A stretch of 24,275 bases of DNA from positions 1 to 24,275 of the forward strand of contig CAYUBP010000002.1 of the NCBI GenBank assembly GCA_964443115.1. The letters are read 5' to 3'. Origin of the DNA: an uncultured Dehalococcoidales bacterium (GTDB lineage: Bacteria > Chloroflexota > Dehalococcoidia > Dehalococcoidales > W111). The first letter of the stretch is position 1; each line of letters opens with the position of its first letter. The notes below the pieces were generated by a model. The model made no database searches, had not been told where the DNA came from, and saw only the letters and a list, made by a program, of their open reading frames with translations. Below are positions 2,308-24,151 of the stretch, one piece after another. The position numbers were made by a program, and so were the translations under genes.

Positions 2308-3579
2308 TTAAATCGGTTTACTCCAGTCAAGCATTATTACCTGGACTGTGTCCCCCGGCTCCACCCTTGCCTTATCCTCGGGGATGATAACCAGACCGTT
2401 AGCTAAAGCCATTGAGGTCAGGATTGCTGAGCCCTGGGGTCCTGTCAGACGGGCGAAATAGCGCCCGTCACGCTCGGTGACTACCGCCCGGCTGAAGACG
2501 CGGCGCTGGTCGCTGTTTACTATGGAGTCCTCTATTATTGCCTCTATTATTGGCCTGGACAGGTCTTTCCTGCCCATCATCTTCAGGATAGCCGGGCGGG
2601 CAAATACCTCAAAAGCCACCATGACACTGACCGGGTTACCGGGCATCCCGAGGTGGGGAATGGCTCTGCTGTTACCCTCCCGATCAACGCCCCTGACTGT
2701 GCCGGAAGTAAGCGGCTTTCCTGGCTTCATCCGGACCTGCCAGAAGTTGATTTCGCCCTCTTTAGCCAGGATGTCCTTTACTATATCATAATCGCCGACT
2801 GATACGCCACCGGTAGTTATCAGCAGGTCAGCCTCAAGCCCCCGGCGGAAGCTGGCTTCCAGCGACCGGGCATTGTCCCTGGCTATCCCCAGCATCCTGG
2901 GGATTCCCCCGTAGCGCAACACCAGGGCTGCCAGGCTGTAGCCATTACTATCATATATCTTACCCGGAGGCAACTGCTGGTCAACGCTCGCCACCTCGTC
3001 ACCGGTGACGAGAATGGCAACCACTGGGCGGCGGATAACCTTTGCTACGCCCTTACCCAGCGACGCCAGCACGCCGACCTCTGAAGGCCTTATTAGCGTT
3101 CCCGCGGCAAAAACCAGCGACCCTTTTGCTACATCCTCGCCAGCACGGCGGACTTCCTTACCCACAGCGACTTCCCGCAGGATGCCAATTTCCAACGGCG
3201 GCTCCTTGGTAGCCCTGTCCCGCCGGGCATCATCGGTATCCTCAAACCTGACCACCGAGTCCGCCCCACCCGGTATCGGCGCTCCGGTCATAATCCGAAT
3301 AGCAGTACCCGGCTCCACCCGCCGCGAAGAGAAAGAGCCTGCCATCACCGTGTCAATTACCCGTAGCAACCGGGGAGACTCCCGGCTGGCACCCCGCGTA
3401 TCTTCAGCACGGACGGCGTAACCATCCATCGCCGCATTGTCCAGCGACGGGATATTGATAGCTGAATATACATCTTCAGCCAGCACCTGACCCAGGCAGG
3501 CGAGAATCGGGCACTCCTCCCCTTCCAGGACATGTACCTGCCCCAGAATCCTCTCCAGAGCCTCGTCAACAGTTATCAT
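2308..3579 (-). CDS. moeA: Molybdopterin molybdotransferase (gephyrin-like)
   Basis: DNAAMDGYA, IMTGAPIP.GADSVV..ED, TTGGVSVGDYD, MKPGKP, GMPGNPVS and GPQGS motifs. ATG 3579 overlaps the mobA stop (ATGA). Confidence 0.95.
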   Translation of the reverse strand: MITVDEALERILGQVHVLEGEECPILACLGQVLAEDVYSAINIPSLDNAAMDGYAVRAEDTRGASRESPRLLRVIDTVMAGSFSSRRVEPGTAIRIMTGAPIPGGADSVVRFEDTDDARRDRATKEPPLEIGILREVAVGKEVRRAGEDVAKGSLVFAAGTLIRPSEVGVLASLGKGVAKVIRRPVVAILVTGDEVASVDQQLPPGKIYDSNGYSLAALVLRYGGIPRMLGIARDNARSLEASFRRGLEADLLITTGGVSVGDYDIVKDILAKEGEINFWQVRMKPGKPLTSGTVRGVDREGNSRAIPHLGMPGNPVSVMVAFEVFARPAILKMMGRKDLSRPIIEAIIEDSIVNSDQRRVFSRAVVTERDGRYFARLTGPQGSAILTSMALANGLVIIPEDKARVEPGDTVQVIMLDWSKPI

Positions 3580-4184
3580 TGGCAACGTCTCCTTGCTAGT
3601 TCCTCTGCCTTCTCCATGTCAGCCTCGGTATTAATGTTGAAGAAGCTCAGGTGCTCAGGGTCAAACCGGCTAATCTCCTCACTATCTACATACCTGACAT
3701 TAACTAGGTCTAATAGTCTATAAATGCCCAGCTCGTCTTTTTTTAACATCTGCTCTATAGGACTCAGGCAAGCCTTAGAATAAACCGCATGTAGCGGCTC
3801 AACCATTGTGCCAAAACGGGGTATCACCAGGTCAAAGCCGGCAGCAAGCTGTACCATATGGCTCAGCAGGCCTCTGTTTAAGAAAGGCATGTCACAGGCA
3901 ACGACAAGGTTATATGGTGAGCGAGATGCAGCAAGCCCGGTAAAAATACCGCCCAGCGGGCCCCTGGCCGGGTAAATATCAGCTACTGCCCTGTACCCCG
4001 TATAGCCGGCAAGCCAGGGACAGCTTCCAGGTTCACCGGTCACGACGATTATATCACTATCAAGAAAGCTTATACCATCAAGAACCCGCCGGAACAGACT
4101 CTTTCCACCAACTATTATATTCGCCTTATCGCGCCCTAAGCGAGAGCCTCTACCGCCAGCCAGAACAATGCAACTTAAGTCCAA
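3576..4184 (-). CDS. mobA: Molybdenum cofactor guanylyltransferase
   Basis: VLAGGRGSRLGRDKA, GPLGGI, ACDMPF, EPLHAVY and FFNINT motifs. TTG start. Confidence 0.92.
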   Translation of the reverse strand: MDLSCIVLAGGRGSRLGRDKANIIVGGKSLFRRVLDGISFLDSDIIVVTGEPGSCPWLAGYTGYRAVADIYPARGPLGGIFTGLAASRSPYNLVVACDMPFLNRGLLSHMVQLAAGFDLVIPRFGTMVEPLHAVYSKACLSPIEQMLKKDELGIYRLLDLVNVRYVDSEEISRFDPEHLSFFNINTEADMEKAEELARRRCQ

Positions 4185-5897: not shown

Positions 5898-6269
5898 TCA
5901 AACATCCAGAATCAAATCCTTGTAACGTTTTTCAATTGTCTTAGCTTTGAATACAGCCGCTCTGATTTCTAATTTCGTCTTATCATTGACTGAACCCAAA
6001 CCAACAACTAATTCACTATGCCTGAAAGGATACATGCGCGCACAATCCAGATAAGAGTCGTTAAATAGGAAGTGATAATCGGCCTTACTTAAAACTACCT
6101 GGCATTCAAGCAGGTGAGGTCTTTTAGAAATGTATCTATTAACCTTGGAGTTCACCAAGAAGCCCATATAGCCAATGTCATCCAGGTTCTCGCAGACAAC
6201 GAAGACAAACTTTAGTTTGTGAGGATTGGTATGGCGGCAATTCTCAACACGATAAACACGCCACACCAT
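5898..6269 (-). CDS. Hypothetical protein; putative toxin (PanT) cognate to the upstream Panacea antitoxin
   Basis: 123-aa ORF 5 bp downstream of a DUF4065 gene on the same strand, in an AT-rich islet. The predicted beta-rich core with a C-terminal helix is loosely PemK/MazF-like (inference). Confidence 0.6.
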   Translation of the reverse strand: MVWRVYRVENCRHTNPHKLKFVFVVCENLDDIGYMGFLVNSKVNRYISKRPHLLECQVVLSKADYHFLFNDSYLDCARMYPFRHSELVVGLGSVNDKTKLEIRAAVFKAKTIEKRYKDLILDV

Positions 6270-6274
6270 TGCGT

Positions 6275-6796
6275 CTACTCATCATCTGAGTTTGACAGAT
6301 GATCTATTAGGTCGTCAGAATCAGCAAGCAACGCCGCAATACTCTCTACCGACATCTTTACACTACGCTTGTTTCCCCGCTTGTCCCAAGCCTGTTTCCA
6401 TGCATCATCATGGGCTGCTTCTCTTCTAGCCCAATTTGGAACTTGACCCCACACTGCTACAATCTGGTCTAAACACTCTATATCCGATTCGCTTAAGTAG
6501 TCTAAGTTTGCCTCTCGTAAACCTACGACCTGATTTCCTTTAATTTCTAAACCATTAATGGAGTCCACGCTAGCCTCTTTCAATAGGTCATAGGCGTTAG
6601 AGGGTGTTGCACCCTGCTCCATAGCACAATAAGTCTCACCAAAGATGAACCGCCCATATTTCTCCAAACTGGTTTTGTCCGCCAAATAGACCAACTTACA
6701 TATACCATAGATGTCAGAATCAGAGATTCTACGGGACAGATACAAGATGGTCTCAACAGCCTTTGCTCGGTCAAACCGGAAAATAACCCTACCCAT
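6275..6796 (-). CDS. Panacea domain (DUF4065/SocA-like) antitoxin
   Basis: F..KA.E.ILYL, KLVYLADK.SLEKYGRFI.G..Y.AM..G..PS..YD, and LS.SDIECLD motifs characteristic of DUF4065. Confidence 0.85.
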   Translation of the reverse strand: MGRVIFRFDRAKAVETILYLSRRISDSDIYGICKLVYLADKTSLEKYGRFIFGETYCAMEQGATPSNAYDLLKEASVDSINGLEIKGNQVVGLREANLDYLSESDIECLDQIVAVWGQVPNWARREAAHDDAWKQAWDKRGNKRSVKMSVESIAALLADSDDLIDHLSNSDDE

Positions 6797-12351: not shown

Positions 12352-12929
12352 GGCAGCACCAGCTCCCAGCCCCAGACGCTGGCCAGCATCAGCAGTATGT
12401 ATTTCACACTCTTGCCCGTCCAGGTCAAGAGCAGGAACTTCCACATGGGGAAACGCAGGGCGCCGGCGACCACGCCGGCAACATCAAAGGGGAGTACAGG
12501 AGCGGCAGCGAAGATAAAGATGGTCCAGACGCCCCACCTCTTCATCCACCTCTCCACCCGCTCGTACGCCCTGCCCTGCGGCACCGCTTTCCGCCCACTA
12601 TAGCCGACCATGTAGCCGGTCATCTCGCCAAGCGTCCCCCCGGCGGCGCCGACCAGCCCGAGCAACACCGGGTTCAGGGTAGCCACGTAGGGGAAGATTA
12701 CCAGTATGCCGGGCACCGGCAGAATCACCGTGGCGTTGCTGAGCAGGCTGACAACAAAGACACCGAGGTAGCGGTAGTTGCCGAACTGCTCTACCTTCTC
12801 CTGGTCTATCAGGAAGAACAGCCCCACGGAGACGGCGGTGACCGCCAGCAATATTACCAGTGGCACGAGCCTGCTTCTTAGCTGGCTTCCCTTCTGCTCA
12901 CCCTGACTGCTGGCGCTGGCCGTATCCAT
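12339..12929 (-). CDS. VTT domain (DedA/TVP38) membrane protein
   Basis: LPVPG, GGTLGE.TGY.VG and P.LPFDVAG..AG motifs. Convergent 13-bp overlap with the MFS gene. Confidence 0.85.
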   Translation of the reverse strand: MDTASASSQGEQKGSQLRSRLVPLVILLAVTAVSVGLFFLIDQEKVEQFGNYRYLGVFVVSLLSNATVILPVPGILVIFPYVATLNPVLLGLVGAAGGTLGEMTGYMVGYSGRKAVPQGRAYERVERWMKRWGVWTIFIFAAAPVLPFDVAGVVAGALRFPMWKFLLLTWTGKSVKYILLMLASVWGWELVLPYVS

Positions 12930-12973
12930 CTATAGCATTTTAGCACATTCCGGGGCAGAGGTATCCGGCGGCG

Positions 12974-13003
12974 TTGTCTATCAGCCGGATGTCATGCTAT
13001 ACT
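12974..13003 (+). promoter_or_regulatory. tRNA-Glu promoter
   Basis: TTGTCT (12974-12979), 18-bp spacer, extended -10 TGCTATACT ending at 13003, 10 nt before the tRNA. Confidence 0.55.
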
Positions 13004-13013
13004 TTGTCAGTGT

Positions 13014-13086
13014 GCCCCCATCGTCTAGTGGACTAGGACACTGGCCTTTCAAGCCGGCAACAGCGATTCGAATTCGCTTGGGGGCG
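13014..13086 (+). tRNA. tRNA-Glu (anticodon TTC), CCA not encoded
   Basis: Cloverleaf: acceptor GCCCCCA/TGGGGGC, D stem GTCT/GGAC, anticodon stem CTGGC/GCCGG with loop CT-TTC-AA, T arm AGCGA-TTCGAAT-TCGCT, discriminator G. Confidence 0.96.
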
Positions 13087-13108
13087 CTTACTATATTTTA
13101 AAGCGCCC
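13082..13108. terminator. Hairpin between the convergent tRNA and hydrolase genes
   Basis: Perfect 8-bp inverted repeat GGGCGCTT/AAGCGCCC around an 11-nt AT-rich loop. No clear U-tract. Confidence 0.4.
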
Positions 13109-13135
13109 GGCTCAGCCTCTTATAGCAAAAACCGC

Positions 13136-14095
13136 CTACTGCTTGGTGATGGTCAGGACAATGATAGCCACCGCCAGCAAGGCAGCTGACTCGGCGAACT
13201 TTCCTGATTTGTGCGAGGCGAGAAGAGCGCACAGCGTTTCAATACGTCCGGCTGACACCTCAGCCAGGACGGGCGCCGGCTCTGCGGGTACTTCAGCGAC
13301 AGCCGGCTGCCCCTGCCCCAGGAACTTGAACAGCGTCTGCGAGAACTCGTGCCGGCTCTGCCGGTAGACGCTGTGACCGCAGTCTTCAAACACCTGCAGC
13401 CTGCAATCCGGGATGAGGCGGGCGGCTTTATAGGCAGCGCTGACAGGCACTATGTTGTCCTTTGCCCCCCAGACCAGCAGTGTGGGCATCTTAAGGTCAT
13501 AGAGAGAGGCTGATAAATGTGGCTGCCGCCTGAGTGATGCGATGTACCTTCCCATGTCAATCTTAACGGGAGGCAGGGGGTTAATAAAAATTGAGGCAAA
13601 GACCCGTTTTACCACCCAGCCGAGTGCCCTCATCAGGACATGGAGAGACCGGCTGAGCGGCTTGGCCAGCGCCGGCAAAGACACCAGCCTCACCCATAGC
13701 CCAACCTTGGCTCCCAGACCCAAGCTGCTGACAAGAACCAACTTCTCCACCTTTTCCGGGTGCTTTAAGGCGTAGTTCAGGGCGATGCTGCCCCCGATAG
13801 AGTGCCCTACAAGATAGAACCGCTCCAGCCCCAGGCTTTCCACAAAGCCGCCCACGAACTCAACATACTGGGAAAGGTGGAACTGGTCACTAATCGGCTG
13901 GCTGTCGCCATAGCCGGGGAGGTCAGGCAGGTACACGCGGTAATGCCGGGCAAGACCGGCGGCACTATCAAGCCACACGCTGGCTCCTTCGCCGCCGCCA
14001 TGGATGATAACCAGAGGTCTTCCGCCACCACCCACAAAGTAACTGGCATTATACCTGCCCACCCTTATTTCCTGGTGGGACATACTATTCGGCAT
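13136..14095 (-). CDS. Alpha/beta fold hydrolase with C-terminal extension
   Basis: HGGG oxyanion motif, DLPGYG, nucleophile elbow GHSIGG, WGAKD acid and CGH His. Start is ATG 14095 or 14083. Confidence 0.88.
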   Translation of the reverse strand: MPNSMSHQEIRVGRYNASYFVGGGGRPLVIIHGGGEGASVWLDSAAGLARHYRVYLPDLPGYGDSQPISDQFHLSQYVEFVGGFVESLGLERFYLVGHSIGGSIALNYALKHPEKVEKLVLVSSLGLGAKVGLWVRLVSLPALAKPLSRSLHVLMRALGWVVKRVFASIFINPLPPVKIDMGRYIASLRRQPHLSASLYDLKMPTLLVWGAKDNIVPVSAAYKAARLIPDCRLQVFEDCGHSVYRQSRHEFSQTLFKFLGQGQPAVAEVPAEPAPVLAEVSAGRIETLCALLASHKSGKFAESAALLAVAIIVLTITKQ

Positions 14096-14108
14096 ATCTA
14101 CTGCAATT

Positions 14109-14138
14109 ATTATACAGCAAAACGCACATACTATTCAA
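14109..14138 (-). promoter_or_regulatory. Promoter of the hydrolase gene
   Basis: Minus strand TTGAAT (14138-14133), 18-bp spacer, TATAAT (14114-14109). Confidence 0.5.
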
Positions 14139-14165
14139 AAATTCAGCGCGCTGGGTTCTGCTCAT

Positions 14166-14260
14166 TCTTGGTTGTTAGGACATGTCATTGCGAGGAGCGT
14201 AGCGACGAAGCAATCTGATACAAAGAGATTGCTTCGCTCCGCTCGCAATGACAACCAAGA
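14166..14260. repeat. REP/RPE-like long palindromic element, family B copy 2
   Basis: Nested inverted repeats TCTTGGTTGT/ACAACCAAGA, TGTCATTGCGAG/CTCGCAATGACA and CGAAGCAATCT/AGATTGCTTCG. Confidence 0.75.
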
Positions 14261-14292
14261 TTGCGTAAAAGGGCACGCTGGGCTTGGTGTTT

Positions 14293-14321
14293 TTGACATT
14301 GGAGGGTAAAAGTTGTATTAT
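14293..14321 (+). promoter_or_regulatory. Near-consensus sigma70 promoter upstream of mocA
   Basis: TTGACA (14293-14298), 17-bp spacer, TATTAT (14316-14321). Confidence 0.7.
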
Positions 14322-14552
14322 TAGTCTCCCTGAGAGGGGAGGCAAGCCAGGCACGCATATCCGAGACGCTATGCGGGGCAGAGGCGGGGATACCGGCAGT
14401 ATGACCGGGCGGACAGAAGCCGAATAGAAGCCGGGCAGGTATTGCAGTAGTAGCGGGCGGGACATCAGAGCCGGGGCAAAACCGAGCAGGATGAGGGGCA
14501 GGGTCAGCCGGAGTTCCCTCCGGTGGGGAGCCCCGGAGCAGGAGATGATGGG

Positions 14553-15164
14553 ATGAAAGGCAGGGTCCCCTGGATATCAGTAGTACTTCTTGCCGCCGGC
14601 GAATCAAAGCGTATGGGACAGCCCAAGCAGCTAATGCAGCTGGGGAAGACTACTATCCTGGAGCAGTCCATCAGCAATTTCCTCGCCTCCGAGGCAAAGC
14701 AGGTTATCGTGGTGCTGGGACACCGGGCTGAAGATATGGTTGGGCTAGCCAGGGACAAACCGGTTACGATAGTGGTTAACCCAGCCTACCGCCAGGGGAT
14801 GGGCACATCCATAGCCGCCGGGACAGGTTTAATCAGTGATAAAGCGCAGGGGATTATGCTGGCTCTCTGTGAGCAGCCGTTTATCGACCCCGGGACCATC
14901 AATCAGTTGATAGCGACATTTGGCGCCCAGAACAAGGGCATTGTCATCCCGTGCTACGGCAGCCTCCGCGGTCACCCGGTTATCTTCGCCACCAGGTATA
15001 AAGATGAGCTATCAGGACTAACGGGTGACACCGGCGGCAGGCAGATAATCGCCCGCCACCCCGAAGATGTCCTTGAAGTCGCCGTTGCCTGCGAGGGTGT
15101 CATTACTGACATTGATACTCCTGACAGCTATAATCTGGCGCTTGGCAAAATACGCAACAGGTAA
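14553..15164 (+). CDS. mocA: Molybdenum cofactor cytidylyltransferase-like nucleotidyltransferase
   Basis: LLAAGESKRMGQPKQL, NP.Y..GM.TSI, RGHPVIF, GDTGGR and DIDTPD motifs. Directly upstream of the xanthine-oxidase-family cluster. Confidence 0.82.
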   Translation: MKGRVPWISVVLLAAGESKRMGQPKQLMQLGKTTILEQSISNFLASEAKQVIVVLGHRAEDMVGLARDKPVTIVVNPAYRQGMGTSIAAGTGLISDKAQGIMLALCEQPFIDPGTINQLIATFGAQNKGIVIPCYGSLRGHPVIFATRYKDELSGLTGDTGGRQIIARHPEDVLEVAVACEGVITDIDTPDSYNLALGKIRNR

Positions 15165-15199
15165 ACAGGTAAGTTGAAAATTGGGCGAATTTCCCCCAA

Positions 15200-15228
15200 A
15201 ATATAGCTAATATAGCTGTAGTATAGTT
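15200..15228 (+). promoter_or_regulatory. Tandem direct repeats upstream of yqeB
   Basis: AATATAGCT (15200-15208), AATATAGCT (15209-15217) and AGTATAGTT (15220-15228). Confidence 0.4.
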
Positions 15229-15275
15229 GTGACCCGCAAGATAGCGGGGAAAAGAATTATCATTGAGGGGGAGAA

Positions 15276-16085
15276 ATGCCTGGTTCTGACATTACCGTGC
15301 TAATCAAGGGGGCCGGAGAAATCGGCAGTGGCGTTGCCCACAGGCTAAGCCAGTGCCGGTTCCGGGTATGCCTCACGGAGTGCCCCCGCCCGCTCGCCGT
15401 ATGCCGGGGTACCGCCTTCTCCGAAGCCGTTTTTGACGGGGAAAAGACCATTGAGGGTATCACCGCAGAGCTTGTGCCGGCATCGGAGACATATCAGGTC
15501 TGGAGCCGGGGGAACATACCCCTGGTTATTGACCCCGACGCAATAGTGATAGGGCAGCTTAAGCCGGACGTAGTGGTTGACGCCATCATGGCGAAGCGGA
15601 ACACCGGTACCAGGATTACCGATGCCCCGCTGGTGATTGGCCTCGGGCCGGGGTTTAGCGCCGGCAGCGACGTCCACGTCGTGGTTGAGACCAGCAACAG
15701 TGAAAAACTCGGCAGAGTGATAAAGCATGGGCAGGCGGAGCCGAACAACGGTACGCCGGTAGCTATCGGGGGGCTCACGCGAGAGAGGGTGGGCTGGGCA
15801 CCCCGGGCGGGAGTGTTTATCTCCCGGCTGGAGCTGGGAGATAGTGTGGTCTCTGGACAGACGGTGGGGTGGGTCGGTGACCTGCCGATGGCGGCACCGT
15901 TAAGCGGCATCCTGCGGGGTCTGCTGCGGAGTGGGTTGGAGGTAGCCAGGGGAGACAAGCTATTTGAGGTTGACCCGGCAAACAGCCGGGACGTCTGCTA
16001 TACTATTAGGGACAAAATGCGCGTAGTTGCCGAAGGCGTTCTGAAGGCAATTACAAACTGGAGCCCGGGGGGTGTTTCATGCTAG
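15276..16085 (+). CDS. yqeB: YqeB/EF2563-family selenium-dependent molybdenum hydroxylase maturation protein
   Basis: IKGAGEIGSGVAHRL, AFSEAVFDG, VVDAIMAKRNTGT, IGLGPGF.AG.D and C-terminal biotinyl-like APLSG.LRG...GDKL.EVDP motifs. Confidence 0.88.
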   Translation: MPGSDITVLIKGAGEIGSGVAHRLSQCRFRVCLTECPRPLAVCRGTAFSEAVFDGEKTIEGITAELVPASETYQVWSRGNIPLVIDPDAIVIGQLKPDVVVDAIMAKRNTGTRITDAPLVIGLGPGFSAGSDVHVVVETSNSEKLGRVIKHGQAEPNNGTPVAIGGLTRERVGWAPRAGVFISRLELGDSVVSGQTVGWVGDLPMAAPLSGILRGLLRSGLEVARGDKLFEVDPANSRDVCYTIRDKMRVVAEGVLKAITNWSPGGVSC

Positions 16086-16879
16086 ACATCTACCAGGAAA
16101 TAACCGGACTGATAGCCAGAGGGGAGCGGGCAGTGCTTGCCACCGTCATCTCCAGCCGCGGCTCGGCGCCAAGAAAAGCCGGCTCCAAGATGCTCGTTAA
16201 GAGGGACGGCAGCTCTATCGGCAGCATCGGCGGCGGGGGCATTGAGGAGCAGATGAGGCAGAAGGCTATGGAGATAATGGACTCGGGTGCGCCGCAGGTA
16301 GTCCACTTTGACCTCTCCGGAAGCGGAGAGGAAGCAGCCATGATTTGCGGCGGGCAGGTGGACGTATTCATCGAGCCAATAGTGCCACCGGAGACGCTCT
16401 ATCTCTTCGGCGCCGGGCATATCTCCTACGGCACGGCGATAATCGGCAAGATGCTGGGGTTCCGGGTAGTGGTAATAGACCCGCGACCGGAATATACCAG
16501 CGCTGAGAGGCTCCCCGGTGCCGACCGGCTGCTCGTGGAAGACTACGACGACGCCTTCCCAAAACTGGACATAGACGAAAACAGCTACATCGTCATCTAC
16601 ACCCCGGGGCATGTCCTTGATGAGCAATGCCTCCAGTCTGCCGTCGGCACCAGAGCCAGGTATATCGGGATGATTGGCAGCAAGAAGAAGGTTAAGGAGA
16701 TTAAAGACCGCCTCTTAAAGAAGGGAGTAGCCCGCGAGAAGCTGGACAGGGTGCACGCTCCCATCGGGCTGGAAATCGGTGCCGAGACGCCGGAGGAGAT
16801 TGCGGTAAGCATACTGGCAGAGATAATCAAGGTGAGAAGAGCCAGCATGGACAGCGGACATAAGGGGGCGACGGGGTAA
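16079..16879 (+). CDS. xdhC: XdhC/CoxI-family Moco insertion chaperone
   Basis: GSAPRKAGSKM, GSIGGG, MICGG, FGAGHI, YIGMIGSKKK and APIGL.IGAETPEEIAVSI motifs. Confidence 0.93.
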   Translation: MLDIYQEITGLIARGERAVLATVISSRGSAPRKAGSKMLVKRDGSSIGSIGGGGIEEQMRQKAMEIMDSGAPQVVHFDLSGSGEEAAMICGGQVDVFIEPIVPPETLYLFGAGHISYGTAIIGKMLGFRVVVIDPRPEYTSAERLPGADRLLVEDYDDAFPKLDIDENSYIVIYTPGHVLDEQCLQSAVGTRARYIGMIGSKKKVKEIKDRLLKKGVAREKLDRVHAPIGLEIGAETPEEIAVSILAEIIKVRRASMDSGHKGATG

Positions 16880-17101
16880 ATGGCAAAGACGGGGATGATA
16901 TGCCCCTTCTCGGGCAGGTTGTGCGAAGACTGCGCCTCTTACCGCGGCAGGCATTACTTCCTGTGCTTCTGCGAAGCGTACCGGGGATACATGAAGACGG
17001 CAGACAAAAAACGTAAGGCAAAACCAAACGGGAAATTTGAGATGCCAGTGATAAAAATCAGCCGGGACATATTTGATGCGGCGTTAAAAGATATTAAATA
17101 A
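16880..17101 (+). CDS. 73-aa Cys-rich hypothetical protein
   Basis: ATG directly after the xdhC stop (TAAATG). N-terminal CPFSGRLCEDC..YRGRHYFLCFC. Confidence 0.75.
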   Translation: MAKTGMICPFSGRLCEDCASYRGRHYFLCFCEAYRGYMKTADKKRKAKPNGKFEMPVIKISRDIFDAALKDIK

Positions 17102-17110
17102 GGAGGTCTC

Positions 17111-17569
17111 ATGCTAATTGAAGGCAAATTTACGATGAAGGCGCCGAGGCAGGTGGTATGGGACTTCGTTATTGAACCAGGGACACTGGCTTCCTGCATC
17201 CCCGGTGCTGAGAAGATGGAAGCCGTTGACGACAATACCTGGGAAGGTGTGGTCATACAGAAGGTCGGGCCCATATCGGTGAAGCTCCACTTCACCCAGA
17301 CCCTCGTGGAAATTGACCCCCCTAAACACGTGAAAGCCATCGGCAAGGGTGCTGACGTGACCAAGGCGGGCACCTTCTCCCAAGAGACCATAGTTAACCT
17401 GAATGAAATCTCCCCAAACGAAACTGAGGTAGCATATACCTCCAATGTCAGCATGGTGGGCAAGCTGGCTACCTTTGGCGATAGGATAATGCGAGCCAAG
17501 GTCAAGTCGGTCGGTGAAGAGTTCACCAGGAACCTGCAGGAGAAACTCCGGAGCAAGATCGGCGGCTAG
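17111..17569 (+). CDS. coxG: CoxG/SRPBCC family protein
   Basis: F...APRQ.VWDF....LASCIPG, KVGPI and GKLATFG.RI motifs. AGGAGG SD. Confidence 0.88.
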   Translation: MLIEGKFTMKAPRQVVWDFVIEPGTLASCIPGAEKMEAVDDNTWEGVVIQKVGPISVKLHFTQTLVEIDPPKHVKAIGKGADVTKAGTFSQETIVNLNEISPNETEVAYTSNVSMVGKLATFGDRIMRAKVKSVGEEFTRNLQEKLRSKIGG

Positions 17570-17588
17570 ATGATAACGGAGGGTCAAG

Positions 17589-18488
17589 ATGATAAGAGAC
17601 TTTGAATACTTTGGCCCCAAGACACTAAAAGAAGCTCTTGCCCTGCTGGACAAATATCGGGATGAATACAAGGTAATCTGCGGCGGGCAGTCGCTGCTCA
17701 TCCTGATGCGGCAAGGGCTGGTTGCCCCCGAGCACCTGATTGACATCAAGGGCATAACCGAGCTGAGCTACATCAAGCCCGACGCTAAGAAGGGAATCAG
17801 GATCGGTGCCCTGACCACGCACCGGACGATAGAAAAATCGGCGGTGATAAAGAAGGGCTTTGCCGTCCTCGCCGGGATGGAACGGCGGCTAGCCTCAATC
17901 CAGACCCGGAACTGGGGAACCATTGGCGGCAACCTGTGCCACGGCGACCCGGCGGGAGACCCGGCGCCGGTGCTGATGGCGATGGGTGCCAGCCTGACCA
18001 TGGCCAGCGTAAACGGTACAAGAACCATGCCGGTTGAAGACTTCTTTCTGGACTACTTTGAGACGGCGCTGGAACCCGGGGAGTTGCTTACCGAGATTCA
18101 GGTACCTGCGCCGGCACCTCGTACCGGCACCGCCTACACCAAGTTCAACATCATCCAGAGTGACATGGCGACGGTAGGCGTCGCAGTATCAATTACCCTG
18201 GGCTCAGGCGACGGCGTCTGCAGTGATTGCCGGATAGCGCTGGGGGCGGCGGCACCGACCCCCATGAGAGCTAAAGATGCAGAGAAGTCACTCAAAGGCA
18301 AGCAGATTACGGAAAGCCTGCTCAAAAAAGCCGGGGAGATAGCTTCTACCGAGGCACAGCCAATAACCGATATCCATGCCTCAGACGACTACCGGAGAGA
18401 GCTGGTCAGGGTACTGGTAAAACGGGTCGGCCTGGAAGCCTTAGCCCGGGCTAAAGCTCAGGCTCATGAAGGAGGTCCCATAGCATGA
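17589..18488 (+). CDS. Xanthine-oxidase-family FAD-binding (medium) subunit
   Basis: P.TLKEAL, GGQSL, IGALTTH, RNWGTIGGNL, D.APVL and DIHAS..YR motifs. No [4Fe-4S] insertion. Confidence 0.93.
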   Translation: MIRDFEYFGPKTLKEALALLDKYRDEYKVICGGQSLLILMRQGLVAPEHLIDIKGITELSYIKPDAKKGIRIGALTTHRTIEKSAVIKKGFAVLAGMERRLASIQTRNWGTIGGNLCHGDPAGDPAPVLMAMGASLTMASVNGTRTMPVEDFFLDYFETALEPGELLTEIQVPAPAPRTGTAYTKFNIIQSDMATVGVAVSITLGSGDGVCSDCRIALGAAAPTPMRAKDAEKSLKGKQITESLLKKAGEIASTEAQPITDIHASDDYRRELVRVLVKRVGLEALARAKAQAHEGGPIA

Positions 18489-18964
18489 AGAAAGAGCTTA
18501 AGCTCACAGTAAATGGCCAGCCTTATGAACTGTCCATTAACCCCAAGACTCTCCTGGTTGAGGTACTGAGAGACCACCTGGGGCTCACCGGCACCAAGCG
18601 GGGCTGTAGCGACAGCGCCTGCGGTGCCTGTACTGTGATGCTCAACGGGATGGCGGTCAAGTCATGCTCGGTGCTGGCGGTCCAAGCCGATGGTTGCCAG
18701 GTCACCACCGTTGAGGGCCTGGCAGAAAATAATGAGCTCACCCCGCTACAGAAAGCCTTCCTTGACCATGGCGCCTATCAGTGCGGTTTCTGTACCTCGG
18801 GAATGCTGATGGCGACTACGGCGCTACTGGAGGAGAACGCTAGCCCCACCAAGGAGGAAATAAAAGAGGGTATTGACGGCAATATCTGCCGGTGCACAGG
18901 CTACAACAGTATTGTCCGGGCCGTAACCGATGTGGTCAAGGGTGTGTACAAGGAGGAGAAATGA
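18485..18964 (+). CDS. Xanthine-oxidase-family 2x[2Fe-2S] (small) subunit
   Basis: GTKRGCSDSACGACTV...SC, QCGFCTSG and CRCTGY. ATGA overlaps at both ends. Confidence 0.95.
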   Translation: MKKELKLTVNGQPYELSINPKTLLVEVLRDHLGLTGTKRGCSDSACGACTVMLNGMAVKSCSVLAVQADGCQVTTVEGLAENNELTPLQKAFLDHGAYQCGFCTSGMLMATTALLEENASPTKEEIKEGIDGNICRCTGYNSIVRAVTDVVKGVYKEEK

Positions 18965-21234
18965 GCAAGTTCTCAGTAGTCGGTACACGCGTACATAATG
19001 TTGACGGGCCGGAGAAAGTGACCGGCAGCGCCCGCTATACTTTTGATATGGTGCTACCCGGTATGCTATACGGTAAAATCCTGCGGAGCCCGTACCCCCA
19101 CGCCAGGATTCTTAACATTGACACCAGCAAGGCAGAGCAACTGACCGGGGTTAAGGCGGTGGTCACCGGCAAGGACACGCTGGGGCACAAGCAGGGTATC
19201 TGGCGGCGTTTCCCCGAGCTCTGTGACGAGCAAATCCTCTGCCGGGATAAAGCCCGCTTTATTGGCGACCCGGCGGCGGCAGTGGCAGCGATTGACGAGT
19301 CCACCGCCGAAGAGGCGCTGGACCTGATTGAGGTTGAATACGAACCGCTGCCAGCCGTATTTGACCCCATGGACGCCATTAAAGAGGACGCCCCCCAGAT
19401 TCATGACGGTGTGGAGCTTAATATCAACGTCACCCGCCACATTGAGTGGGGCGATGTTGATGAGGCATTCAAACAGTGCGACCATATCAGAGAGGACTAC
19501 TTCAAGTGCTCGTCACAGGCTCACGTCTGCATGGAGACCCACTGCGCTCTCGCCAGCTTCAGCTATGACAGCAAACTCACGGTGTGGACTTCAACCCAGT
19601 GCTCATACTACATCCAGGCTCTGCTGGCAGACATGCTGGGCTTGAGAGAGGGTGACATCAGGGTAATCAAGCCCCACACCGGCGGCGGCTTCGGCAGCAA
19701 GTTCGAGCTGGACTCAGCCCAGTTCTGCGCCTCGCTGCTGTCCATGAAGCTGTGCAAGCCGGTGAAGATAGTCCTCAGCCGCGAGGAGGAGTTTACGGCT
19801 ACCAAGCGGCGGACGCCGATGTACTACGCCATTAAGCTCGGCGCCAAGAAGGACGGCACCCTGCTGGCAAAAGAGGTCCGCGTCATCAGCAACGGCGGTG
19901 CCTACACCGGCATGGGGGCGACCGCCCTCTACCTCACCGGCTTCTTCTCATCATTCCCGTACAAGTACCCCAACTATCGTTATGATGGCTACCGGGTCTA
20001 CACCAACACCGAGCCGACATCAGCCATGCGCGGCTTCGGCGCCCCGCAATCAACATTTGTTGGCGAGTCCCAGATAGACATGATGGCGGAAGACCTGGGG
20101 ATAGACCCGATTGAAATCCGGCGTAAGAACGGCATGACCCCCAACTACGTGGTACCGGGTCAGGCCGTTATCCAGAGCTGCGGGCTGCACCAGTGCCTGG
20201 ACGCCATTGAGAAGCACATCAAGGAGCGGGGCAAGCTACCTCCCAACCACGGTATTGGTGTCTCCGCTTACGGGTTCATGTCTGGCGGCATCTTTAACTG
20301 GTTTGATACCCCCTACGCCTTCTCCGCAGCCCTGGTCAGGATAAACGTTGACGGCAAGGTTGACCTGTTCACCGGAGCCTGTGACATCGGCCAGGGCTCC
20401 AATACAACGCTGAGCATGATATGCGCCGAGGAGCTAGGCGTGAGGCTTGAGGACATCAGGATACACGCCGCTGACACCGGCATCTGCCCGGTGGACATTG
20501 GTGCCTGGGGCAGCCGGGAAACGCTGATGGCGGGCAATGCCGTCAAGATGGCAGCTGCCGAAGCCAAGAAACAGCTCCTGGAGTTTGCCGCTGCCAAGCT
20601 GGCACCCAACATCACCTACGAGCTAGACATCAAAGACCGCTGGGTTCACATCGTCAACCGCCCGGAGAGGGGTGTCTCCTACTACGACATCGTCAAAGAC
20701 GCAATCAGAGCCAAGGAAGGGGAGGCTATTATCGGGCGCGGGCACTATACCCCGCCCAGCGGCAAATTCGGCATGATTTCCCCGGCTTACAGCTTTGGCG
20801 TTCAGGCTGCCGAGGTTGAAGTAGACCCGGAGACAGGCAGGTACAAGCTGATAAACGTGACCACCGCCCATGAGAGCGGCACGGTCATTAACCCGGTGGG
20901 CATAGAAGGGCAGCTGGAAGGGGCAATCATGATGGCTGGCGGCTACGGCTACTGCGAGGACCTGCCCATGGACGAGGGCAAGATTCTCAACCCCTCCATC
21001 GCCGACTACAAGCTTATCCGCTCCATGGACATGCCGGAGACCAATATTCTGGCGATTGACACCTACGAACCCGAGGGACCGTTCGGCGCCAAAGAGGCTG
21101 GCGAAGGGCTCACCAATCCCACCGCCGGCGCCATCGGTAATGCGGTGTACAAAGCCGCCGGCGTGAGAATCTACGACCTGCCAATAACACCGGAGAAGGT
21201 CCTCAAGGCACTGAAGGAGAAGAGGGGCAAATAG
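18961..21234 (+). CDS. Xanthine-oxidase-family molybdopterin-binding (large) subunit, HcrA-like
   Basis: KVTGSARY, GGGFGSK, AMRGFGAPQ, DIGQGSNT, GQLEG and GAKEAGE motifs. True start is ATG 18961. Confidence 0.93.
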   Translation: MSKFSVVGTRVHNVDGPEKVTGSARYTFDMVLPGMLYGKILRSPYPHARILNIDTSKAEQLTGVKAVVTGKDTLGHKQGIWRRFPELCDEQILCRDKARFIGDPAAAVAAIDESTAEEALDLIEVEYEPLPAVFDPMDAIKEDAPQIHDGVELNINVTRHIEWGDVDEAFKQCDHIREDYFKCSSQAHVCMETHCALASFSYDSKLTVWTSTQCSYYIQALLADMLGLREGDIRVIKPHTGGGFGSKFELDSAQFCASLLSMKLCKPVKIVLSREEEFTATKRRTPMYYAIKLGAKKDGTLLAKEVRVISNGGAYTGMGATALYLTGFFSSFPYKYPNYRYDGYRVYTNTEPTSAMRGFGAPQSTFVGESQIDMMAEDLGIDPIEIRRKNGMTPNYVVPGQAVIQSCGLHQCLDAIEKHIKERGKLPPNHGIGVSAYGFMSGGIFNWFDTPYAFSAALVRINVDGKVDLFTGACDIGQGSNTTLSMICAEELGVRLEDIRIHAADTGICPVDIGAWGSRETLMAGNAVKMAAAEAKKQLLEFAAAKLAPNITYELDIKDRWVHIVNRPERGVSYYDIVKDAIRAKEGEAIIGRGHYTPPSGKFGMISPAYSFGVQAAEVEVDPETGRYKLINVTTAHESGTVINPVGIEGQLEGAIMMAGGYGYCEDLPMDEGKILNPSIADYKLIRSMDMPETNILAIDTYEPEGPFGAKEAGEGLTNPTAGAIGNAVYKAAGVRIYDLPITPEKVLKALKEKRGK

Positions 21235-21258
21235 TACATGAGGCAGGAGGGTTTATTG

Positions 21259-21477
21259 ATGAGCTATCACTGTCCGGTTTGTAATAAGGTTTCAAGCACC
21301 GCTTACGACCTTGCCCGCCACATGATTGGGCGGGGAGACAAGGTGCACCGGGACTGGATTAACTCTAAAGACCTAAAGTACTCCGAGTTGCTGGCATTGC
21401 AGTTCAAGTCCTTTGGCGGCGAGGGCTATAAAGCCCTGGCCAAGGTGCTGGAAGAGGAGACCAAGGTTGAAGACTAG
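21259..21477 (+). CDS. 72-aa C2H2-like zinc-finger microprotein
   Basis: AGGAGG SD before ATG 21259. Pattern C-x2-C-x12-H-x8-H (CPVC...DLARH...KVH). Confidence 0.75.
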   Translation: MSYHCPVCNKVSSTAYDLARHMIGRGDKVHRDWINSKDLKYSELLALQFKSFGGEGYKALAKVLEEETKVED

Positions 21478-21550
21478 CCCGCCTTTCTAGCGAACATGAT
21501 TGTTGTTTTGTTACCGTTATTATAGCCCAAAATCTTCCCAGGAGGCATCA

Positions 21551-22951
21551 ATGGTTGGTATTGTTTCGTACGGCGCTTACATTCCAAAGTGGCGGCTGAG
21601 CCGGGAGCTGTTGCGGAAGGGGATGAAAGGAGAAAAAGCAGTGGCTGCCCCTGACGAGGACAGTGTTACCATGGCAGTAGCGGCAGCACTGGACTGTCTT
21701 AATGGAACCGACCGCTCGTCCATTGACGGTCTTTTTTTTGCCTCCACAACGGCTACTTACCGTGAGAAGCAGATAGCTACCATAGTAGCAGCGGCGGCTG
21801 ACCTCCGCCGTGATATCATAACCGCTGATTTCGCCAATTCTCTACGCGCCGGTACCGGTGCTCTTAAGGCAGCTATTGATGCCGTTAAGGCGGGCTCGGC
21901 AGAAAAAGTACTGGTCGTCGCCAGTGATGTCCGCCTCGGCGGACCCGGCTCGGAGCAGGAGCTGGAGGTGGGCGACGGAGCGGCAGCGGTAATTGTTGGC
22001 AAGAATGACGTTGCCGTTGAGATTGAAGACAGCTACTCCGTTGCCAATGAGGTCTTTGATGTCTGGAGAGCCGAGGATGACAGGTTCATCCGTGCCTGGG
22101 AAGCCCGCTTCGCCCAGACTGCCGGGCTGTTCAAGGTAGTTCCGGAGGCGGTTGAGGGACTGCTCAAGAAGTCAGGCTGCAAAGCCCAGGACTTTGCTAG
22201 GTTGGTAACCTATGCCCCGAACCCGAGACAGGCGGCGGAGCTGGGCAAGATGCTCGGCTTTGACCCCAGGACACAGATACAGGACTCCATTTTTGACGCC
22301 GTCGGCAACACGGGCACGTCCTACGCACTAATGCTGCTGGTAGCGGCTCTGGAGCAAGCCAATGCCGGCGACCGCTTCATGCTCGCAAGCTACGGGAACG
22401 GCAGCGATGCCTTCTCGCTGCGGGCAACAGAGGCACTGGCGAAGCTCAAGGGGAACCGGCGCGGCGTCGCCGTTCACATTCAGTCAAAGCGCTCGGTCCC
22501 TGATTATGTCACCTATCTTAACTGGCGGAAGCTGATGCCCAGGGGCATGGTGATTAACCAGCTCTACTTCTGGACATATCCCTCAGCGCCGCCAATAAAC
22601 CGGGAGCGGAACCGTATTTACCCGCTGCACGGGACAAAATGCCAGAACTGCGGTAATATCCAGTTCCCCCCGCAGCGGGTGTGCGCCTTCTGTCATACTA
22701 AAGACAGGATGGAGGAAGTACGGCTGTCCGATAAGAATGCCACTCTATTCTCCTTCTCCACCGAGTTTGCCAGCGGGCAGCTTATCGGCATCGTTAACTT
22801 TGAGGGTGGCGGCAGGATATGGTGCAACATAGTTGATGCCAACTATAAAGACCTTGAAATCGGCATGCCCGTAGAGATGAGCTTCAGGGAAGTGCTCTTT
22901 GAAATGGGCATGCATGACTACTACTGGAAAGCGGTACCACGAAGGGCTTAA
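21551..22951 (+). CDS. HMG-CoA synthase/KAS-III-like domain fused to a DUF35 (Zn-ribbon + OB-fold) domain
   Basis: GIVSYGAYIP, DEDSVTMA, GDGAAA, VGNTG and SYGNG motifs. C-terminal KCQNCG..QFPPQRVC..C and IGMPVEM.FR. GGAGG SD before ATG 21551. Confidence 0.88.
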   Translation: MVGIVSYGAYIPKWRLSRELLRKGMKGEKAVAAPDEDSVTMAVAAALDCLNGTDRSSIDGLFFASTTATYREKQIATIVAAAADLRRDIITADFANSLRAGTGALKAAIDAVKAGSAEKVLVVASDVRLGGPGSEQELEVGDGAAAVIVGKNDVAVEIEDSYSVANEVFDVWRAEDDRFIRAWEARFAQTAGLFKVVPEAVEGLLKKSGCKAQDFARLVTYAPNPRQAAELGKMLGFDPRTQIQDSIFDAVGNTGTSYALMLLVAALEQANAGDRFMLASYGNGSDAFSLRATEALAKLKGNRRGVAVHIQSKRSVPDYVTYLNWRKLMPRGMVINQLYFWTYPSAPPINRERNRIYPLHGTKCQNCGNIQFPPQRVCAFCHTKDRMEEVRLSDKNATLFSFSTEFASGQLIGIVNFEGGGRIWCNIVDANYKDLEIGMPVEMSFREVLFEMGMHDYYWKAVPRRA

Positions 22952-22963
22952 GAAGGAGGAGTT

Positions 22964-24151
22964 ATGCCTGGCGTAAAGGATAAAGTAGCTATAATCGGCA
23001 TGGGGTGCACCAGGTTTGACGAGCACTGGGACAAGGACATAAAAGACCTCATCATTGATGCTTGCTGGGAGGCTTTTGATGATGCCGGGGTTGACCCCAA
23101 GGACATCCAGGCTGCTTGGTGGTCCACCATGTGGAACGGTGAGCTGGGGAGGTCTCTCGCATACCCGTTGAAGCTCGGTTTCATACCGATTACCCGCATA
23201 GAAAACAGGTGCGCCAGCGGTCAGGATGCTATCCGCAACGCCGCCTTTGCGGTGGCATGCGGCGCTTATGACCTGGTGCTGGTCTGCGGGGGAGAAAAGC
23301 TCAAGGACATCGGCATGCCCTCCCCCGGGGGAGACCCTTCAACACCCTACACCAGCCGTGTTGAGCCTACCTCTTTCCCTGTAGCCATGTTCGCCCAGCT
23401 CGCGCAGAGGTACTTCCATCACTACGGCATCCCGATTGACAAGGGCAAGGAGATTCTAGGCCGCATCGCCGTAAAGAACCACCATAACGGCGCCCTTAAC
23501 CCCAAAGCCCAGTTCCAGCGTGAGATAACCCTAGAACAGGCAATGAACGCCCCCATCGTTTCCTACCCGCTGGGGCTGTTTGATGCCTGCGGCGTCACCG
23601 ATGGCGCCGCCGCGATGATACTCTGCCGCGCCGATATTGCCGGGAACTTCCGCGACGACTACATCCTGATGAAGGCGGAAGGCATGGCATGCGGGCACTA
23701 CCAGCCCCAGACCGAGGACAACTGGGACCCGTATTACATACAGGAGAACGTAACCGGCTCCAGTATGGCTTATAAAGAAGCCGGCATCACCAACCCGCGG
23801 AAGGAGCTTGACCTCGCCATCGTCCATGATTGCTTCACCATCACCGAGCTGGCGATATACGAAGACCTCGGCTTCAGCGAGCGGGGGAAGGGCCCGGAGG
23901 ACGTGGCAGCGGACACCTTCGCCCTTGACGGCGAGCTGCCGGTCAACACCGACGGCGGTCTGAAGTGCTTCGGGCACCCGATTGGCGCCAGCGGCATCAG
24001 GATGGTCTATGAAGTGTACAAGCAGCTCCAGGGTAAAGCCGGACCGCGGCAGGTCAAGATAAAGAACGGGCTCGGTCTGGCTCATACCTACGGCGGAACC
24101 CCCATAGATAGTGGGACGGGTGCATTTACTATATACGGCACCCGTGACTAG
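22964..24151 (+). CDS. SCP2-type thiolase / acetyl-CoA acetyltransferase
   Basis: ENRCASG (nucleophilic Cys), KNH.NG, DGAAA, HDCF and GHPIGASG motifs. Lacks the terminal CxG of classical thiolases. Confidence 0.9.
   Translation: MPGVKDKVAIIGMGCTRFDEHWDKDIKDLIIDACWEAFDDAGVDPKDIQAAWWSTMWNGELGRSLAYPLKLGFIPITRIENRCASGQDAIRNAAFAVACGAYDLVLVCGGEKLKDIGMPSPGGDPSTPYTSRVEPTSFPVAMFAQLAQRYFHHYGIPIDKGKEILGRIAVKNHHNGALNPKAQFQREITLEQAMNAPIVSYPLGLFDACGVTDGAAAMILCRADIAGNFRDDYILMKAEGMACGHYQPQTEDNWDPYYIQENVTGSSMAYKEAGITNPRKELDLAIVHDCFTITELAIYEDLGFSERGKGPEDVAADTFALDGELPVNTDGGLKCFGHPIGASGIRMVYEVYKQLQGKAGPRQVKIKNGLGLAHTYGGTPIDSGTGAFTIYGTRD

Follow-up and report, generated by a model that had tools for sequence, protein, structure and literature searches.

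A 4-hydroxybenzoyl-CoA reductase-like molybdenum enzyme with putative microprotein partners, and its neighbouring thiolase pair, in an uncultured Dehalococcoidales bacterium

To our knowledge, the only enzymes of the xanthine oxidase (XO) family that run "backwards" and remove phenolic hydroxyls are 4-hydroxybenzoyl-CoA reductase (abbreviated here as 4-HBCR) and, since 2025, the dehydroxylase Ucdh. The mechanism of 4-HBCR is explained by an extra [4Fe-4S] loop. Here we describe a gene cluster for a relative of 4-HBCR in a 24,275-nucleotide stretch of DNA from an uncultured Dehalococcoidales bacterium (GCA_964443115.1, contig CAYUBP010000002.1), hereafter the window. Open reading frame (ORF) calls and family scans place eleven tightly packed genes at 14553-24151 on the + strand: three maturation genes, the microprotein gene mp73, a CoxG-like gene, the M, S and L subunits of the molybdenum enzyme, a second microprotein gene, mp79, an HMGS-like-DUF35 fusion and a thiolase. 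These genes form two units that lie side by side in this lineage only, one at 14553-21477 and the other at 21551-24151.

Canonical 4-HBCR (HcrCAB/HbaBCD; Thauera aromatica, PDB 1RM6/1SB3) is a three-subunit Mo-FAD-[2Fe-2S] enzyme of the XO family, associated, as is the enzyme described here, with the anaerobic benzoyl-CoA pathway. It is a reductive dehydroxylase and uses the molybdopterin cytosine dinucleotide (MCD) cofactor (PMC12771579). Its genes are ordered S-L-M (hcrC-A-B) rather than M-S-L, and its FAD subunit carries a four-Cys [4Fe-4S] loop that M here lacks. The Geobacter metallireducens operon is of this canonical hcr type (PMC1924859) and is therefore no model for the clade in the window. 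The urolithin C 9-dehydroxylase Ucdh of Enterocloster bolteae, likened here by its description, is a 4-HBCR-related XO-family enzyme that strips a phenolic hydroxyl standing para to a carbonyl; it is built of a catalytic, an FAD and a 2x[2Fe-2S] subunit and requires XdhC (PMC12771579). It acts on a free polyphenol lactone instead of a CoA ester, and neither microproteins nor CoxG are reported for it. As a second XO-family reductive dehydroxylase, Ucdh indicates that this chemistry reaches beyond 4-HBCR (PMC12771579).

Further systems resemble parts of the locus. Molybdenum carbon monoxide dehydrogenase (Mo-CODH), CoxMSL with CoxG, shares the M-S-L order, a CoxM-like FAD subunit and an SRPBCC-type CoxG partner encoded in the cluster, where CoxG is a quinone-binding partner that shuttles menaquinone (PMC12202499). 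Selenium-dependent molybdenum hydroxylases of anaerobes, such as nicotinate dehydrogenase and purine hydroxylase, likewise combine YqeB with an XO-family enzyme (PMC2276186, PMC11448449); here, however, the catalytic subunit is of another type than xanthine or nicotinate dehydrogenase, and the cluster has no YqeC. Finally, the thiolase pair resembles a fused dead HMGS-DUF35 protein with an intact ACAT from Pseudomonas fluorescens, which was characterised in 2026 and catalyses thiolysis of acetoacetyl-CoA but no condensation (PMC12960953), and it is homologous to two three-part assemblies, the archaeal acetoacetyl-CoA thiolase/HMGCS/DUF35 complex (6ESQ) and the PhlACB acyltransferase (5M3K).

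A separate clade of 4-HBCR-like enzymes

The core enzyme is encoded by M (17589..18488, FAD-binding; PF00941 and PF03450), S (18485..18964, two [2Fe-2S] clusters; PF00111 and PF01799) and L (18961..21234, the molybdopterin-binding catalytic subunit). L consists of a hammerhead and two MoCoBD domains (PF01315, PF02738, PF20256). This domain set is that of three-subunit molybdoenzymes of the XO/CODH family, with all Pfam scores far above their cut-offs.

The closest characterised relative of L is 4-HBCR, at 38% identity. Its best PDB match is the Thauera enzyme (1rm6_A, 504 bits), followed by quinoline oxidoreductase (292 bits), while CoxL (241-285 bits), the aldehyde oxidoreductase MOP (249 bits) and PaoC (199 bits) lie much lower. 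The best NCBIfam model is the 4-HBCR alpha subunit TIGR03194 (741.7 bits, under the cut-off of 994.55), and the next is XdhA (558 bits). We rejected an identity as CODH on the scores of L against TIGR02416 (299 bits, cut-off 991) and NF040766 (348 bits, cut-off 950). The sequence motifs of L are GGGFG at 241, AMRGFG at residue 355 and AKEAGEG at 710; the region of residue 355 is the one where the CODH signature loops lie.

The other two subunits stand further from 4-HBCR. S has its cluster cysteines at positions 41, 46, 49, 61, 100, 103, 135 and 137 and reaches 169 bits against the 4-HBCR gamma model TIGR03193, short of the cut-off of 257.8. M resembles CutM/CoxM in the PDB search, with HcrB not among the matches, and scores 125 bits against the 4-HBCR beta model TIGR03195 (cut-off 405). 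In a pairwise alignment with Thauera HcrB, M is without the insertion of about 36 residues that holds the four-Cys [4Fe-4S] site. We also considered an HcrB-type loop in the M subunit of a Syntrophorhabdaceae variant that has no mp73, and rejected it; that M is 293 aa long and has no loop.

To define the surroundings of the enzyme, each protein of the window was run by tblastn against 82 loci, comprising 80 genome loci (L 66-88% identical) and two, L081 and L082, found via the fusion protein. Across this set L is 66-93% identical, and the carriers belong to at least five phyla, Chloroflexota, Aminicenantes, Desulfobacterota (including the isolate Syntrophorhabdus aromaticivorans UI and Desulfomonile), Bacteroidota and Spirochaetota. 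The closest loci are Dehalococcoidales and Chloroflexota metagenome-assembled genomes (MAGs). The conserved unit is mp73-(CoxG)-M-S-L-mp79. Of the 82 loci, 79 have mp79 (76/77 where there is room downstream), and in 73 of these its start is no more than 150 bp past the end of L; CoxG is present in 67/82, and mp73, directly upstream of CoxG or M, in 59/82 (57/68 where there is room upstream).

For comparison we used 80 canonical hcrCAB loci from Thauera, Magnetospirillum, Aromatoleum and others, with the neighbourhood taken within 8 kb. All have the order S-L-M, and none (0/80) has mp73, mp79, CoxG or YqeB, whereas the clade of the window has mp73, mp79 and CoxG and sometimes YqeB. The identity of L to canonical HcrA is 35-39%, and this distance, together with the different order and partners, places the enzyme of the window in a separate clade.

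The neighbours of the module in other genomes, for which the ORFs of the 82 loci were clustered and the recurrent ones scanned against family models, point to a common context. Oah (TIGR03200, 531 bits, cut-off 464) lies near the module in 8 loci of two phyla, a frequency that greatly exceeds chance if the gene is taken to be about single-copy per genome. In one of these loci, L005, it is accompanied by Had (TIGR03201, 463 bits, cut-off 339) as well as by a hydratase of the size of Dch. Enoyl-CoA hydratase and 3-hydroxyacyl-CoA dehydrogenase (ECH/HCDH), a short-chain dehydrogenase (SDR), an ADP-forming acyl-CoA synthetase, HGD-D with its activator and TRAP or SSF transporters also recur; TRAP transporter genes flank the module in Syntrophorhabdus, and IorAB with an aminotransferase adjoins it in another locus group. 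A further 16 loci carry a stand-alone thiolase of the SCP2 type, frequently accompanied by DUF35. Such neighbourhoods connect the clade with the breakdown of aromatic acids as CoA thioesters via the benzoyl-CoA route, and the presence of Oah and Had is consistent with, though no proof of, a ferredoxin-dependent dehydroxylation of 4-hydroxybenzoyl-CoA.

In Aminicenantes (L026, L033, L038, L039, L043, L045, L046) the module sits within a compact catabolic island. Upstream of the module are an HGD-D-type protein with a BcrAD-type activator, the ADP-forming acyl-CoA synthetase and an SSF symporter, and downstream are Oah, ECH/HCDH, SDR, thiolase and DUF35. In nine loci (L007, L008, L019, L042, L046, L050, L059, L061, L062) a second, more distant XO-family enzyme adjoins the module; some of its catalytic-subunit ORFs are 890-950 aa long, which fits a fused S-L, and these loci resemble multi-molybdoenzyme islands.

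The explanation that we favour, and to which we give about an even chance, is that the operon encodes a 4-HBCR-like enzyme that contains MCD and acts on an aryl-CoA with a para substituent, with mp73, mp79 and CoxG as partners that compensate for the missing loop, and that the thiolase pair serves the lower pathway in this lineage. In such a scheme, 14553-21477 would be the maturation and structural operon of a molybdenum-flavin-iron-sulfur enzyme. MocA would make the MCD cofactor, XdhC would insert it and YqeB would possibly add a labile selenium ligand. The M/S/L core would then act on a para-substituted aromatic acyl-CoA, most likely by removing the hydroxyl of 4-hydroxybenzoyl-CoA or a close analogue to give benzoyl-CoA. 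The four conserved cysteines of mp73, the C2H2 zinc site of mp79 and the soluble CoxG-like protein would belong to dedicated extra subunits or to assembly or electron-transfer partners, standing in for the [4Fe-4S] loop that is absent from the FAD subunit of the clade. From these comparisons we infer which substrate is used, in which direction the reaction runs and what the microproteins, CoxG, YqeB and selenium do.

Several observations weigh against this explanation. L scores too low for the 4-HBCR equivalog and the set of subunits is a different one, so that the substrate could differ as well. XdhC and MocA have their best scores against aldehyde-oxidoreductase maturation families, and YqeB is elsewhere linked with hydroxylases of N-heterocycles. 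The AF2 model of mp73 is uninformative (pLDDT 54.6, from a 29-sequence alignment), and fusions of mp79-like domains to nuclease-like domains hint at DNA binding instead of a subunit role. The window holds no Oah, Had or benzoyl-CoA reductase, and an association of the clade with any thiolase (18/82 loci) is only modestly above chance for thiolase-rich genomes. Finally, oxidative enzymes linked to quinones are typified by a CoxM-like FAD subunit and CoxG (PMC12202499), which favours the hydroxylase or dehydrogenase direction.

The form of the enzyme that this clade represents is that of abundant uncultured anaerobes living in sediments, aquifers, landfills and digesters, and DNA sequencing runs place the locus of the window in wastewater and landfill metagenomes; a search for RNA-seq runs with the locus found none. 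MAG studies routinely name the clade "4-hydroxybenzoyl-CoA reductase", yet the [4Fe-4S] loop is absent and unannotated metal-binding microproteins and usually a CoxG-like protein are present. JGI names already label it "putative 4-hydroxybenzoyl-CoA reductase", and there is a generic mention of 4-hydroxybenzoyl-CoA reductase for Dehalococcoidia (PMC4959651). If the microproteins prove to be subunits, claims from annotation that Dehalococcoidia and Aminicenantes degrade phenol, p-cresol or tyrosine rest on an enzyme that may differ from 4-HBCR in composition, in electron donor and perhaps in cofactor (selenium). The microprotein-bearing, loop-less and possibly selenium-dependent architecture appears to be without a description in the literature searched, where nothing was found on pcmRST either. 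The novelty lies in this variant of 4-HBCR and not in a pathway.

The microproteins, CoxG and the direction of the reaction

The two microproteins are conserved across phyla and have invariant metal-ligand motifs, and thus are real genes and not chance ORFs. The gene for mp73 (16880..17101) abuts XdhC and encodes 73 aa with five cysteines and no Pfam family. Among relatives the motif CP-x5-C-x2-C-x2-YRGRHYYLC (Cys8, 15, 18, 29) is invariant, and the 48 detectable homologues are all unannotated. The protein is a probable metal- or Fe-S-binding partner of the molybdenum enzyme.

The mp79 ORF spans 21238-21477, with its likely start at ATG 21259, as supported by the alignment of relatives and an upstream GGAGG; this start gives 72 aa, as in relatives. 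The protein has the invariant motif CPxC-x12-H-x8-H, together with ARH, GxGD and a Trp, and is predicted with confidence to form a beta-beta-alpha zinc finger followed by three helices (AF2, pLDDT 83.5). The model has no significant structural neighbour in Foldseek (best E = 0.8), and the sequence matches about 56 clusters among 1.84 billion representatives. Two proteins, P0296 (263 aa, with two mp79-like domains) and P0325 (200 aa), carry distant mp79-like C2H2 domains fused to an N-terminal PD-(D/E)xK nuclease-like domain, and the mp79 fold may have a nucleic-acid-binding origin.

Such fusions, and the prediction of a classical C2H2 finger with a helical domain, would fit mp79, and perhaps mp73, as a small zinc-finger transcription regulator of the operon instead of a subunit. 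We consider this rather unlikely. mp79 follows L directly, within 150 bp, in 73 of its 79 loci across phyla, and its identity goes down together with that of L (where L is 88% identical, mp79 is 85% identical, and the values for L of 74% and 67% go with about 50% and about 41% for mp79), which is the usual pattern for stoichiometric partners. Moreover, some loci of the clade carry a TetR regulator of their own.

An extension of our preferred explanation assigns each small protein a definite role. Here mp73-(CoxG)-M-S-L-mp79 would be an unrecognised five- or six-component aryl-CoA (de)hydroxylase of strict anaerobes (Dehalococcoidia, Aminicenantes, Syntrophorhabdus, Desulfomonile), maybe selenium-dependent, in which mp73 supplies the metal or Fe-S centre of the HcrB loop, mp79 caps the catalytic subunit and YqeB installs a selenium ligand. 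In this full form the proposal is unlikely to be correct.

The CoxG-like protein (17111..17569; PF06240, 78 bits) bears on the direction of the reaction. It would have a natural place in an oxidative enzyme, either an aromatic aldehyde oxidoreductase (e.g. from 4-hydroxybenzaldehyde to 4-hydroxybenzoate, after a step like that of p-cresol methylhydroxylase, PCMH) or an aryl-CoA hydroxylase, whose electrons pass via FAD to a quinone or carrier held by CoxG. The occurrence of CoxG in most loci of the clade, with the menaquinone shuttling by CoxG of Mo-CODH (PMC12202499) as precedent, argues for this reading, as do the similarity of M to CutM/CoxM, the absent [4Fe-4S] entry point for ferredoxin and the maturation-family scores of XdhC and MocA. 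On the other hand, L scores far higher against 4-HBCR than against MOP or PaoC and is much nearer to it than to CoxL, and the CoxG-like protein of the window, at 152 aa, has no membrane anchor. Ucdh, in addition, is an XO-family reductive dehydroxylase with an FAD subunit outside the 4-HBCR type (PMC12771579). An oxidative enzyme is thus clearly unlikely in our estimate.

The same reading draws on flavoproteins like vanillyl-alcohol oxidase (VAO) and PCMH that adjoin the module in 11-13 mostly Chloroflexota loci, but this similarity is limited to the FAD domains, whose best matches are to these two enzymes at 63-70 bits. These proteins form a trio of two VAO/PCMH-like flavoproteins (about 485 and 534 aa) around an HdrD/TfrB-like Fer4-CCG Fe-S protein of about 431 aa. 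The trio lies directly upstream of mp73 in L001, L002, L004, L006, L009, L010, L011 and L048. Candidate roles for the trio are those of an oxidoreductase for 4-alkylphenols or 2-hydroxyacids and of an electron-transfer partner.

The HMGS-like-DUF35 fusion and its thiolase

The second unit consists of the fusion gene (21551..22951) and the thiolase gene (22964..24151). The fusion protein is an HMGS-like pseudoenzyme followed by a zinc ribbon (C364, C367, C378, C381) and an OB fold, and its HMGS-like domain has 6esq_I and PhlA as best matches. In the alignment to 6esq_I, the catalytic tetrad Glu82, Cys114, His238 and Asn270 of HMG-CoA synthase corresponds to T66, L98, Y221 and N253, so that three of the four residues are replaced and the Asn alone is kept. 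In the fusion and in all of its 120 closest relatives (120/120), Leu, Ile or Thr takes the place of the catalytic Cys. The HMG-CoA synthase models are not reached (PRK04262, 235.9 bits with a cut-off of 244; TIGR00748, 176 bits with a cut-off of 353). The identity of the catalytic residues is confirmed in the literature, and PhlA likewise lacks them (PMC6392133). A role at the start of the mevalonate pathway was rejected, since the catalytic Glu, Cys and His are replaced.

The thiolase, of the SCP2/archaeal type (ACAT), scores 487 bits against PRK06157 (cut-off 403) and 209 bits against its best PDB match, the archaeal acetoacetyl-CoA thiolase 6esq_A. Its catalytic motifs are intact: C83 (CxS), H288-D-C-F291 (HDxF) and G337-H338. 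The pair thus differs from the 6ESQ complex, as its HMGCS-like domain cannot make HMG-CoA, and from PhlACB, since the thiolase, unlike PhlC, keeps HDxF; CoA-dependent thiolysis is therefore expected, and not a Friedel-Crafts acyl transfer. The closest likeness is to the P. fluorescens pair, where the fused protein has also lost the tetrad and the thiolase keeps Cys, HDxF and GHx (PMC12960953), although the fusion of the window retains the tetrad Asn (N253) and its family is much expanded in Dehalococcoidia. By these sequence features the pair is of the already described ACAT/HMGS-DUF35 type, a general beta-oxidation thiolase in which a dead scaffold would hold an active thiolase that cleaves 3-ketoacyl-CoA. 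As a Dehalococcoidia example of a described thiolase-scaffold type, this half of the cluster is of lesser import.

We next consider whether the pair belongs with the molybdenum enzyme. A pattern scan of genome contigs with the single fusion protein gave no relatives, while an alignment profile of the fusion family gave 80 fusion-side loci (L083-L162), mostly of Dehalococcoidia. The thiolase is adjacent in 67 of these, and the neighbours include acyl-CoA dehydrogenase, enoyl-CoA hydratase, SDR, 3-hydroxyacyl-CoA dehydrogenase, family III CoA-transferase and acyl-CoA synthetase, which marks the pair as a generic beta-oxidation module. Molybdenum-enzyme components are near the fusion in none of them (0/80). 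Conversely, the fusion is near L in 2 of the 82 L-side loci, L081 and L082, both near relatives with the whole gene order of the window. In other Dehalococcoidales loci, with 84-88% L identity, unrelated genes follow mp79. The pair occurs as several paralogues per Dehalococcoidia MAG, and also in Bathyarchaeia and Armatimonadota. It is a generic, exchangeable module and no fixed partner of the molybdenum enzyme.

The original prediction had joined all genes into one pathway, in which the molybdenum enzyme hydroxylates an aromatic, heterocyclic or steroid-type substrate and this HMGS-DUF35/thiolase pair then cleaves the product thiolytically. The genes do lie on one strand, the order is kept in L081 and L082, other thiolase and DUF35 pairs are found near the module in 16 further loci, and a consensus scan of the 73-bp spacer at 21478..21550 found no promoter-like or terminator-like site, which is weak evidence either way. 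Co-transcription across the spacer, with an AGGAGG ribosome-binding site at 21540-21545, is thus possible in this organism. The lack of co-conservation on both sides, an outcome that the original prediction itself had named as refuting, the many paralogues of the pair in generic beta-oxidation contexts, a spacer of about 370 bp in L081 and the nearest characterised enzyme being a reductase make a single eleven-gene pathway very unlikely.

Parts of that prediction fare better. The genes are present on the + strand with overlapping stops and starts, although they number eleven and not ten; the host is Dehalococcoidia-like, judging by the closest loci; and the two microproteins do have conserved metal-ligand motifs. 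The link of the molybdenum enzyme to CoA-dependent anaerobic aromatic catabolism is borne out by its neighbours elsewhere (Oah, Had, ECH/HCDH, acyl-CoA synthetase, thiolase and DUF35). Of the proposed cofactor-tailoring set, mocA, yqeB and xdhC hold, whereas coxG has to be removed, as a quinone-binding partner in Mo-CODH (PMC12202499). The HMGS-DUF35/thiolase module is also there, with a domain named HMGS that has lost most of its catalytic residues. Hydroxylation is doubtful, given a reductive dehydroxylase as the closest characterised relative (PMC12771579), and nothing was found that points to steroids. An undescribed pathway is not needed, as the parts fit the known benzoyl-CoA scheme and the thiolase type characterised in 2026 (PMC12960953). 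The coupling of the molybdenum enzyme to CoA-dependent cleavage finds partial support at the level of the pathway, but not for this thiolase module or for a new route; the specific hydroxylase-then-thiolase pathway is a weak proposal that the comparison does not support, with parts of known kinds.

Under our preferred explanation, the pair can still serve the same catabolism in this lineage. In L081 and L082 the flavoprotein trio (12797-17176 and 12751-16819, respectively), HCDH and ECH follow the thiolase pair, just past the point where the window ends. This makes it plausible that the second unit serves a beta-oxidation-like lower part of the degradation of the same aromatic acid.

Maturation genes, selenium and further features of the window

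MocA makes the MCD form of the molybdenum cofactor (Moco). The operon begins with its gene (14553..15164; PF12804), which scores 187.8 bits against TIGR03310 (cut-off 186.45) and whose presence fits an MCD use of the 4-HBCR type (PMC12771579). YqeB follows (15276..16085) with 290.5 bits against TIGR03309, above the equivalog threshold of 220. It overlaps by 7 bp with the XdhC-family Moco insertion chaperone (16079..16879; PF02625 and PF13478), which scores 304 bits against NF045664, under the cut-off of 350. M and S, and S and L, overlap by 4 bp each, and the remaining intergenic gaps of the cluster are 3-111 bp.

YqeB marks selenium-dependent molybdenum hydroxylases and takes part in their maturation, according to genetic evidence (PMC11448449) and prediction (PMC2276186). 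It lies near the L of this clade in the window and in five other loci of two phyla (L010, L057, L063, L081, L082). No match to a YqeC model was found in the operon, in the rest of the window or among the extra ORFs of L081. On the strength of YqeB, the molybdenum enzyme is possibly selenium-dependent. That it is a selenium-dependent N-heterocycle hydroxylase (acting on a purine, on nicotinate or on a similar compound) that has nothing to do with aromatic CoA esters is highly improbable: this usual role of YqeB-linked enzymes is suggested by the above-threshold YqeB in the operon, by its recurrence in the clade against 0/80 canonical hcrCAB loci and by the XdhA matches of L, but 4-HBCR is clearly the best match of L, the neighbours elsewhere are benzoyl-CoA pathway and acyl-CoA genes and not those of purine or nicotinate catabolism, and the window has no YqeC.

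In Syntrophorhabdus aromaticivorans UI (L063), whose L is 70% identical and is accompanied by mp79, YqeB (12399-13679; 323 bits, cut-off 220) directly follows L and is fused to an N-terminal PEP-utiliser swivel domain. This fusion hints at a phosphotransfer step in YqeB-dependent cofactor maturation.

A promoter-like site (14293..14321, +; TTGACA-17-TATTAT, 11/12 consensus matches) lies upstream of MocA and, as a consensus match only, is a candidate operon promoter. An Rfam scan gave no riboswitch, of the Moco or any other class, ahead of MocA; besides the tRNA gene described below, its only match is a sub-threshold one to SAH (E = 0.16). About 10 kb upstream of the cluster, the - strand carries MoeA and a MobA-type guanylyltransferase (2308-4184), so that the organism also makes a cofactor of the molybdopterin guanine dinucleotide type and the cluster is not the sole Moco locus of the window. 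A tRNA gene (13014-13086, +, 58 bits in Rfam) lies between a VTT-domain gene and an alpha/beta hydrolase gene. Finally, the - strand at 5898-6796 holds a 123-aa ORF that has no family match, followed by a Panacea/SocA-like antitoxin-domain protein (PF13274); the GC content of this patch is 0.443, against 0.54-0.61 around it, and it is a probable toxin-antitoxin insertion.

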